Assembly (NCBI GenBank): GCA_964655535.1
Contig: CAZZPM010000002.1
Coordinates: 1 to 44,272, forward strand
DNA length: 44,272 bases
DNA from: an uncultured Pseudomonadota bacterium
Lineage (GTDB): Bacteria; Babelota; Babeliae; Babelales; CAZZPM01
Reading direction: 5' to 3'
The notes beneath the pieces were generated by a model. The model saw only the letters and a program-made list of their open reading frames with translations. It did not search any database and was not told where the DNA came from. This document shows positions 32,801 through 34,179 of the stretch, piece by piece (the first letter of the stretch is position 1; each line of letters begins with the position of its first letter). The translations under genes were made by a program, and so were the position numbers.

Positions 32801-34179
32801 TATTCTTCCATAGTTTTAAACGATGGGGCATCACCAGGACGTAATTTTGAATAAATTTCTTTAATTGCTTCTTCACGAGATGTATTATGATCATGTGCAA
32901 GTGTTAAGGCCATTGATGGCTGAAATGCATATCCAGGTGAATGAACCAGAACAATAGATCCTTTTTTTTGCTCGCTTAAATACTCAACAAAATCAACCGT
33001 TAAAACATCACCATGCTGTAACAGTAACTCTCCTGTTGTTACATCAATTAAATCATTCGCTAAAATACGATTAATTAAACTCGCTTTACGAATTGAAATT
33101 TGATTAATTTTACGCTTTTCTAAATCATTAAGCATCTCTTGCGTCAAACGCTGTCCTACTCGAAACTCAGCTTCAAGTGATTCTGGTAGCGCACCAGCTT
33201 CAAGTCGTTGACCAATCATTGATGTATCAAGTTTTTTAAAAAAATTACCATCAACTACTTGAATTGTTTCAGAACTATAAAACAGAGGAATTATAGATTG
33301 TTTTTCTATTCCCAATGCTTGCAACAAAGTTGTTGCTAAAAATTTTTTCTTCTTATCAATACGAACATGCAATATATCGTTATGATCAAATTCAAAATCA
33401 AGCCATGCACCACGAGCAGGAATTATCCGTGCGCTATGAGAGGGTTGACCACGAAAATCACGAGACTTACGACTATACGCAAATAAAATACCAGGAGCAC
33501 GGTGAATCTGACTTACCACCACACGATCAACGCCATTAATTAAAAATGTTCCTTGATTGCCCAATTTAAACAGACCATCTTGATCTTCATACAAATTTAC
33601 CATGACCGGTAAATCACAAAAAAATACTTCTTGCTCTTTTATTTCACGTACGTAACGATCACCTGTATCTTCTGCATAATCCCACATCAACAATTGAAGT
33701 CGCACTTTTAAAGGCATCGTGTATGATTTACCACTATAGCGACATTCATCAACCGTATCAGGAGTTTTAATTACCACACGAGAACAACAACGCTTACAAC
33801 GAATGTATGAAGCAGTTTTCTTTTCACAATACAAACAAGCATTGTTTTTTAAACGACTTTGACCATTTTTTTTACAACTGGTGCATTGCCACTTATATCG
33901 ATTAATAAGGCCCGTGAGATGACCACAAACACATGCCCAATCCCCCAATTCATAATGCATATATTCAAGCGAAATGCGATCACTATGCTCAACAGGAAAA
34001 ATATCTCGGAAAACTTTTTCAAGTCCGATCTTTTTTCTTTCAGATGGTAGAAAATCCAGCTGCACGAAATCGTTAAATGATTTCGACTGTACCTCTATCA
34101 AATTTGGCAACGAAACCACTTCCTCTATTTTTCCAAATGACTTTCTTAAGGCATTCTTCTCTTCGTGAAACCCAGACAT
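29851..34179 (-). CDS. rpoB: DNA-directed RNA polymerase subunit beta (with a Cys-rich N-terminal insertion)
   Basis: The conserved blocks are [57 protein letters not shown] and MNVGQ. GGAG lies 7 nt before the ATG. Confidence 0.97.
   Translation of the reverse strand: [1442 protein letters not shown]

Follow-up and report, generated by a model that had tools for sequence, protein, structure and literature searches.

A phylum-wide cysteine-rich insertion in the RNA polymerase beta subunit of Dependentiae, predicted to fold as a nested double zinc ribbon

Can the beta subunit of a bacterial RNA polymerase carry metal sites of its own? To our knowledge, every metal site of bacterial RNA polymerase lies in beta', and the beta insertions known to us share one fold and a few sites. 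The question is raised by rpoB, the gene for beta, on contig CAZZPM010000002.1 of assembly GCA_964655535.1, deposited as an uncultured Pseudomonadota bacterium, of which we analyzed a stretch of 44,272 nucleotides (the window). In its N-terminal part, the encoded protein contains a basic segment of about 60 residues with four pairs of cysteines, hereafter called insertion 1 or the module, and farther along the chain a much shorter one, insertion 2. An earlier note made from the nucleotide sequence alone had drawn attention to both. We describe here what the larger insertion is, where it occurs, where it sits on the enzyme and what it may do.

The gene is a genuine bacterial housekeeping rpoB by domain content, catalytic motifs and genomic context. 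Its product has the full set of Pfam domains, i.e., Rpb2_1, Rpb2_2, Rpb2_3, Rpb2_45, Rpb2_6 and Rpb2_7, and a 1,291-residue alignment to the beta subunits of C. crescentus and E. coli showed that the catalytic motifs, NGYNFED included, are intact. It lies in the canonical nusG-rplK-rplA-rplJ-rplL-rpoB-rpoC cluster, with the genes for L7/L12, L10, L1, L11, NusG and RpoC as its neighbors. The features discussed below are listed in Table 1.

Table 1. Positions of the features discussed; coordinates are those of the window, or of the named locus for the last five rows
Feature	Position	Strand	Remarks
rpoB, housekeeping RNA polymerase beta subunit, 1,442 aa	29851..34179	-	Open reading frame, six Rpb2 Pfam domains, end-to-end alignment with proteobacterial RpoB structures
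Insertion 1, 59-60 aa Cys-rich basic module, RpoB aa 81-140, predicted nested double zinc ribbon	33760..33939	-	
Outer knuckle 1, C83-V-C85, within the W-x-C-x-C-G motif	33925..33933	-	Unchanged in 106/106 sequences
Inner ribbon, aa 96-125	33805..33894	-	Knuckles C99-x2-C102 (33874-33885) and C115-x2-C118 (33826-33837)
Outer knuckle 2, C128-K-R-C131, followed by invariant R134-V135	33787..33798	-	106/106 sequences
Insertion 2, 12-13 aa beta-hairpin, aa 195-207	33559..33597	-	Not in PDB RpoBs; in 106/106 Dependentiae sequences
Canonical beta' zinc-binding domain (ZBD), C71-N-C73 ... C86-E-K-C89, comparison element	29592..29648	-	
STAND NTPase + fusion unit, S. chartreusis JBFAQD010000008 (L081)	8712-13759		Streptomyces and related metagenomic contigs (this and the following rows)
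STAND NTPase + fusion unit (L082)	1461-6719		
STAND NTPase + fusion unit (L083)	6053-10993		
STAND NTPase + fusion unit (L084)	1485-6608		
STAND NTPase + fusion unit (L085)	6406-11822		

A phmmer comparison with all PDB chains aligned RpoB residues 8 to 80 and 142 to 260 to adjoining residues of 46 distinct bacterial RpoB sequences, bearing out the claim of the earlier note that the segment between them is a true insertion. The flanks join at residues 79/85 of the C. crescentus protein and at about 77/82 of the E. coli protein, and with full-length RpoB the second aligned stretch, 142 to 1432, corresponded to C. crescentus residues 85 to 1353. The insertion site thus corresponds to the junction of E77 and P78 in E. 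coli beta. In this search no solved RpoB had a counterpart of the approximately 60-residue insertion 1 or an equivalent of insertion 2. Such a module is absent from every bacterial beta subunit whose structure has been solved. The cysteine spacings first read from the translation, CxC-13-CxxC and CxxC-9-CxxC, were correct. Nine cysteines occur in the 59 residues of insertion 1 versus six in the 1,383 residues of the rest of the protein (binomial P = 6e-12). There is no compositional anomaly, the GC content being 0.367 in insertion 1 versus 0.364 in the whole gene.

We scanned one genome per GTDB species, which gave 288 relatives, and analyzed the best 80 of these 288 (58 to 85% identity). They are Dependentiae, TM6 or Babeliales records, with Vermiphilus pyriformis and Dependentiae Noda2021 represented by complete genomes, and all 80 have insertion 1 at the identical place. 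The best protein matches to the RpoB of the window also bear the names Candidatus Dependentiae, Babeliales or TM6, and its nearest relative, at 85%, comes from the metagenome-assembled genome (MAG) NORP98. An alignment of 106 Dependentiae RpoB N termini was built from the 80 species-representative genomes or MAGs plus metagenomic fragments. Insertions 1 and 2 were present together in all 106 sequences, so that the second insertion of about 13 residues, proposed from a single sequence, is confirmed as a constant companion of the first. The gene rpoC came after rpoB in all 68 loci that reached far enough, and rpoB was intact and full length in both complete genomes inspected. An assembly chimera or a pseudogene is ruled out by the intact gene, its operon setting, its normal GC content and the recurrence of the same insertion at the same place in 80 independent genomes or MAGs and approximately 25 metagenomic fragments. 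We are highly confident that insertion 1 is what it appears to be, a conserved, phylum-wide feature of the housekeeping RNA polymerase of Dependentiae/TM6.

The survey yielded several observations on individual records. Approximately 18 third-party MAG assemblies titled 'uncultured Pseudomonadota bacterium' (L002, L006, L010, L011, L015, L016, L018, L020, L023, L025, L027, L035, L042, L048, L066, L069, L073 and L076) have an rpoB of TM6 type that includes both insertions, and they group among the Dependentiae sequences in the tree; their labels are probably wrong. The protein P0058 was considered as a basal Dependentiae RpoB devoid of the insertion and rejected: it is an outgroup, its own relatives are RpoBs at 55 to 60% identity, and the few with a source name come from Alphaproteobacteria, Holosporaceae and Nitrospiraceae. 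Several database entries, among them P0010 and P0011 on contigs of 1.35 to 1.37 Mb, are RpoB N-terminal products of about 300 residues that end near residue 300. A general split of rpoB in their clade was rejected, as two complete genomes from it (L065 and L067) have intact genes for 1,441 to 1,448 residues, and we suspect that the short products reflect frameshift errors in long-read assemblies.

The conservation of the eight cysteines is informative as to how they may be paired. C83, C85, C128 and C131, i.e., the outer four, were unchanged in 106 of the 106 aligned sequences, and C99, C102, C115 and C118, the inner four, were all present in 97; the cysteine pattern seen in one protein is thus largely shared by its orthologues. 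Eight sequences had lost all four inner cysteines and a ninth (P0041) three of them, and the outer four were kept in all nine. One protein, P0039, showed a clean deletion of residues 98 to 119 with its outer cysteines retained. In a neighbor-joining tree built on the flanks alone, the nine sequences occupied three to four separate places, an approximate count given the 184 or so residues used. C132, the ninth cysteine of the window protein, was not conserved, and 58% of the sequences had a cysteine at position 107 instead. Only one departure from the invariant outer site was seen, outside the 106 aligned sequences: P0124, a 131-residue Dependentiae-like fragment from the search of representative proteins, has C128 replaced (…CSECKEKLHFIKNVSQCLVRV…) and an aberrant C terminus, and is a probable pseudogene or sequencing error.

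Because the inner four cysteines disappear jointly and the outer four stay, and because an inserted domain must bring its own two ends together, a nested pairing of the knuckles (1+4 and 2+3) is favored. We consider it likely, judging from these sequence patterns, that C83, C85, C128 and C131 form an outer site and C99, C102, C115 and C118 an inner one. The inner ribbon, which would lie at the tip of the module, is evolutionarily dispensable. Two zinc ribbons in succession, with C83, C85, C99 and C102 as one site and C115, C118, C128 and C131 as the other, would have spacings of 13 and 9 residues that are typical of ribbons. Yet in such an arrangement the loss of the inner cysteines, all four in eight sequences and three in P0041, would destroy both sites in proteins whose outer four are invariant. 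The sequence with the clean deletion and the need for the ends of the domain to meet argue in the same direction, and we regard the sequential arrangement as very improbable. Cross-brace ligation is not compatible with the pattern of loss of the inner cysteines.

Besides the cysteines, W81, G86, G90, R94, Y95, W97, L110, Y125, R134 and V135 are invariant or nearly so in the module, with R94 and R134 invariant throughout the alignment. Its net charge averages +8.4 (range, +3 to +13) versus -1.1 for the 184 flanking residues in the same 106 sequences. Column conservation is 0.68 in insertion 1 versus 0.78 in the flanks.

AlphaFold2 modeling of RpoB residues 1 to 260, with a 37-sequence alignment as input, gave per-residue confidence (predicted local distance difference test, pLDDT) values of 92 to 96 over residues 71 to 140, and the module modeled in isolation had a mean pLDDT of 88.8. 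DSSP assigned strands at residues 80-82, 96-99, 105-107, 123-125 and 136-138, together with a helical turn at residues 91-94. The four knuckles are predicted to sit between or beside these strands, at hairpin turns and with pLDDT above 90, as expected of two-knuckle zinc ribbons. Insertion 2 was modeled with strands at 196-198 and 204-206. The Foldseek matches of the module in PDB and BFVD are headed by zinc ribbons or knuckle modules close to them: the RNF126 N-terminal finger, Rpb12, the N-terminal zinc module of MCM, reverse gyrase, Nob1, HypA and the FmdB family. Their probabilities reach 0.91 to 0.96 with TM scores of about 0.4 to 0.57, and none has E <= 0.001 (best E = 0.36), so that Foldseek found no significant solved or viral structural relative of the module in these two collections. 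The in-context model retrieved only ordinary bacterial RpoBs from PDB, none of which covered more of the query as a module-bearing chain would, and RpoB residues 71 to 150 matched no Pfam family at E <= 1, with DZR (PF12773) and other zinc-ribbon families included in the search. The models thus depict a confidently folded, basic Cys4+Cys4 module whose best fold matches are ribbon-like; from this we infer zinc binding, the metal sites themselves being predictions. The double zinc ribbon of the earlier note stands as far as the four conserved cysteine pairs, the confident fold and the zinc-ribbon matches go; its sequential pairing does not, given the joint loss of the inner cysteines.

With respect to the enzyme, insertion 1 lies in the N-terminal part of the beta1, or protrusion, domain. 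It had been placed near the beta lobe, i.e., beta2, which was not borne out. This region is beta-uD1, which comprises E. coli beta residues 1 to 152 in a published domain scheme (PMC11515920). The beta1 core is a four-stranded antiparallel sheet with strand 4 at its edge, and this strand bears the residues that dock Mfd and CarD (I117-K118-E119 in E. coli) beside the loop between strands 3 and 4 (PMC3001067). Insertion 1 exits from the C-terminal end of strand 2, and insertion 2 comes after strand 4, at its C-terminal end. Since the sheet is antiparallel, and with an assumed strand order of 1-2-3-4, both insertions would emerge at the same end of the sheet, two strands apart and opposite the Mfd/CarD patch. 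Very probably, therefore, they jointly build a single, composite projection from the surface at the end of the sheet away from the docking strand, a placement read from the topology rather than computed. Past insertion 2 the chain enters a segment directed toward the N-terminal rifampicin cluster and the junction of beta1 with beta2. The composite unit may accordingly sit at the rim of the main channel instead of at the outer tip of the protrusion. The docking residues themselves, I180-K181-E182 in the window protein, are invariant or nearly so across the relatives.

Insertions in beta are known from other lineages. A 2024 survey of beta and beta' insertions, in which those shorter than 50 residues were omitted, described five beta sites, located in uD2, uD3, uD4 and uD5 and mostly occupied by BEAN folds (PMC11515920). 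The lineage-specific insertions of this kind, such as E. coli SI1 (beta-i4) and SI2 (beta-i9) and the BEAN domains, resemble the Dependentiae module in being domain-sized, in occupying a surface loop of beta, in being confined to one lineage and in being conserved there (PMC11515920). They differ in their sites, in beta-uD2 to uD5 versus beta-uD1, and in their BEAN fold (CATH 3.90.105.10) versus a Cys-rich one. The survey contains no uD1 site, and the terms zinc, cysteine and Dependentiae are likewise absent from it (PMC11515920). With its site at E. coli 77/78 and a predicted fold matching zinc ribbons rather than BEAN domains, the module does not belong to the catalogued BEAN/SI1/SI2 insertions. 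The insertion catalogues of Lane and Darst reportedly predate the TM6 genomes. A full-text literature search, which did not cover these 2010 catalogues, returned nothing on a zinc module in bacterial beta or on the RNA polymerase of Dependentiae. We therefore view the insert as a lineage-specific RNA polymerase insertion whose fold class and site are new, as are its predicted metal sites in beta.

Polymerases of other domains of life offer a second comparison. The second-largest subunit of the archaeal and eukaryotic enzymes binds zinc, and Rpb12/RpoP, Rpb9, TFIIB, TFIIS and the C-terminal site of Rpb2 share the predicted fold class of the module, Rpb12 being among its best structural matches. 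None of them has sequence homology to it or a significant Foldseek score, the best E value being the 0.36 given above, and the Rpb2 site is at the C-terminal clamp end of that subunit, not in the protrusion. CarD, RbpA and the sigma-NCR protrusion, which stabilize the open complex in the vicinity of the protrusion and the ZBD, are comparable by functional analogy only: they are located on the beta protrusion or beside it and contact DNA upstream, at -13 to -19. They bear no sequence or fold relation to the module, and the strand to which CarD and Mfd dock is intact here, at the other end of the beta1 sheet.

A further comparison is with the zinc-binding domain of beta' from the same operon, which is almost unchanged across the 68 related loci. 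The beta' ZBD and the region of the beta insert both lie on the upstream side of the enzyme. Both are basic modules with a CxC ... CxxC ligand pattern (predicted in the insert) whose first knuckle reads W-x-C-x-C-G-[KH]: it is DWACVCGH at the start of the insert (33910-33939), consensus xWACTCGK, and DWECNCGK in the beta' ZBD of the same genome. Alignment of the insert with the beta' ZBD by hhalign was confined to the first knuckle, with 88.6% probability over 15 columns, or 77.6% over 12 columns when the variants without inner ribbon were used. Past these 12 to 15 columns the likeness ends; the insert, unlike the beta' ZBD, has a second, nested ribbon, belongs to another subunit and domain, and does not match Pfam Rpb1_1. 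The shared knuckle could reflect partial duplication or convergence. An origin of the insert by duplication of the beta' ZBD is a lead suggested by the sequence of that knuckle.

When a profile limited to the insert was run exhaustively over 1.84 billion representative proteins, the matches were Dependentiae RpoBs and only one other family, P0125 and 11 relatives, of proteins of approximately 1,220 to 1,280 residues. Three further hits (P0126, P0127 and P0136) are regarded as spurious, as they match just 19 to 29 profile positions in repeat proteins, and no stand-alone donor of the insertion, or donor from another context, was found in this search. The members of the family that have a source name are annotated 'hypothetical protein' in Streptomyces. 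They carry the module at the homologous position, after GYELGxW, with all eight cysteines and the motifs RY, [SG]RL and Y..C..C.[ST]RV, and a hairpin-like segment at the position of insertion 2. As for Pfam, they gave sub-threshold DZR matches only (E 0.03-0.08; 13.6 to 14.7 bits versus a 27.3-bit cut-off). In contrast to Dependentiae RpoB, these are single chains of about 1,250 residues that lie outside the rpoBC operon and lack the catalytic motifs of beta and beta'. The family profile maps to RpoB residues 32-201, 896-1019 (flap-tip helix included) and 1327-1409, and to RpoC residues 26-196 (ZBD included) and 231-490 (clamp helices included), with beta' NADFDGD and beta NFED both replaced. 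By these sequence features, the family consists of catalytically dead beta-beta' fusions. Their own beta and beta' first knuckles are even closer to each other than those of the window (EWDCACGTLTG versus DWKCACGQLLG).

In four of four independent contexts, the fusion gene directly follows a gene on the same strand for a STAND NTPase of 379 to 532 residues, with Pfam matches to AAA_16, NACHT and nSTAND1 and a weak PADLOC match to Avs1b. The islands around this unit abound in genes of defense type and encode an integrase, Mrr, pPIWI_RE_Y, SbcCD, UvrD-like and MZB helicases and AAA_15/21 proteins. The unit is not in PADLOC, and no paper was found that describes one. It may represent a defense system in which a mimic of RNA polymerase serves as sensor or bait.

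What could such a module do in the housekeeping enzyme? The earlier note had proposed a docking or nucleic-acid-contact module, or a substitute for a missing trans-acting factor, and of the observations made here the strongly basic charge is the one that bears on these ideas. The explanation that we favor, a nested zinc module serving as a contact surface for nucleic acid in cis, has in our estimate a probability of about 0.5 as a whole. The outer zinc site would tie both ends of the insertion together at its base and the inner site would form a second ribbon at the tip, giving a rigid, positively charged surface that would work in cis. Along the rim of the main channel, this surface might contact the duplex of the upstream fork or spacer, or the non-template single strand, perhaps in concert with sigma, and such a contact would stabilize promoter or elongation complexes. 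Other phyla would obtain comparable help in trans from CarD or RbpA, or from additional sigma elements. From its place on the protrusion, CarD extends to template DNA at -13 to -15, a lineage-specific sigma element can contact -17 to -19, and lineage-specific cis elements can play such CarD-like roles (bioRxiv 10.64898/2026.02.09.704077); these cases show that upstream DNA can be reached from surfaces around the protrusion. We also count in favor of this explanation that the module has been maintained in a catalytically dead beta-beta' derivative along with the protrusion, flap-tip, ZBD and clamp-helix regions. Taken by itself, nucleic-acid contact as the function of the module is a tentative proposal. 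Several points weigh against it: the basic charge would also be compatible with binding of an acidic protein or of RNA; the inner ribbon, though dispensable, holds a good part of that charge; retention in the Streptomyces proteins could reflect a mere structural requirement of the beta1 fold; and the conserved I180-K181-E182 gives no sign in the sequence that CarD/Mfd binding or a trans factor has been replaced.

The same observations bear on three other explanations. The module might be a docking platform that recruits a lineage-specific partner, for instance a region of sigma, a factor for elongation or termination, or one connected with the intracellular lifestyle, to the protrusion without touching nucleic acid. 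Contacts between proteins are often made by zinc ribbons in RNA polymerases, and the top fold matches include Rpb12; the protrusion is a known docking domain, for Mfd and CarD; and the Streptomyces family retains, with the module, known sigma-binding elements (flap tip and clamp helices). W81, R94, Y95, W97 and R134 are candidate surface residues that could form the interface. However, no candidate partner was found, the window contains no unusual transcription-factor gene beside rpoBC, and a net charge of +8 would be more usual in a module that binds nucleic acid, so we hold this role to be rather unlikely. No more probable in our view is a purely structural function, in which the zinc-stapled module and the hairpin would rigidify beta1 or the beta1-beta2 junction without a ligand of their own, having been fixed early and become indispensable for folding. 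The invariance of the base-stapling outer site next to an expendable, exposed inner ribbon, the persistence of the module in a degenerate, non-catalytic, paralogue-like family and its lower conservation relative to the flanks would all suit a buttress. On the other hand, a simple staple requires neither the strong positive charge kept throughout the phylum nor the invariant R94 and R134, and all other bacterial phyla fold beta1 without the module.

Least convincing of the three is a sensor, in which the knuckles would bind iron in the manner of rubredoxin or form reversible disulfides, making the polymerase responsive to oxidative conditions in the host cell. Rubredoxin-type and zinc-ribbon knuckles are indistinguishable by sequence, a rubrerythrin-like viral protein is among the weak fold matches, and a ninth cysteine is common (C107 in many relatives, C132 in the window). 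Nevertheless, there is no positive evidence for a sensor, the fold matches are overwhelmingly zinc proteins and the extra cysteine positions are not conserved, and we judge the chance of such a role to be slight. Returning to the favored contact surface, a broader and more speculative extension of it would have the module and hairpin act as a cis element of initiation or elongation that takes hold of promoter DNA, bubble DNA or sigma from the side of the protrusion, doing the job of a trans factor in a host-dependent phylum with reduced genomes. The same surface would then be the bait in the Streptomyces operon, where a STAND NTPase and a dead RNA polymerase would sense proteins that target RNA polymerase. 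We think it improbable that this scenario holds in full.

In the surroundings of the gene, the GTG start codon of rpoC at 29858 lies within the 3' end of rpoB, and the two genes share 8 nucleotides (29851-29858), which suggests their translational coupling. Downstream of rpoC, past genes for PNPase and an RNase PH-like protein, positions 16568-22271 on the minus strand contain three open reading frames (152, 326 and 202 residues) without Pfam match. They are followed by a gene for a 1,241-residue protein whose sole recognizable part is a C-terminal MscS-type mechanosensitive channel domain (residues 1069-1223).

The insertion provides a clean molecular synapomorphy for Dependentiae sequences, including MAGs deposited under other labels, and could be used as a quick marker of the phylum. 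The unannotated family of dead beta-beta' fusions with their STAND NTPase, to which the module led, may be of independent interest. A zinc-stapled basic domain on the protrusion, conserved throughout a phylum, would add both a new class of insertion and a new site to those known in RNA polymerase. The repeated loss of its inner ribbon amounts to a natural experiment, in which the influence of accessory surfaces close to the upstream fork on transcription can be tested directly in obligate intracellular bacteria whose genomes are reduced.

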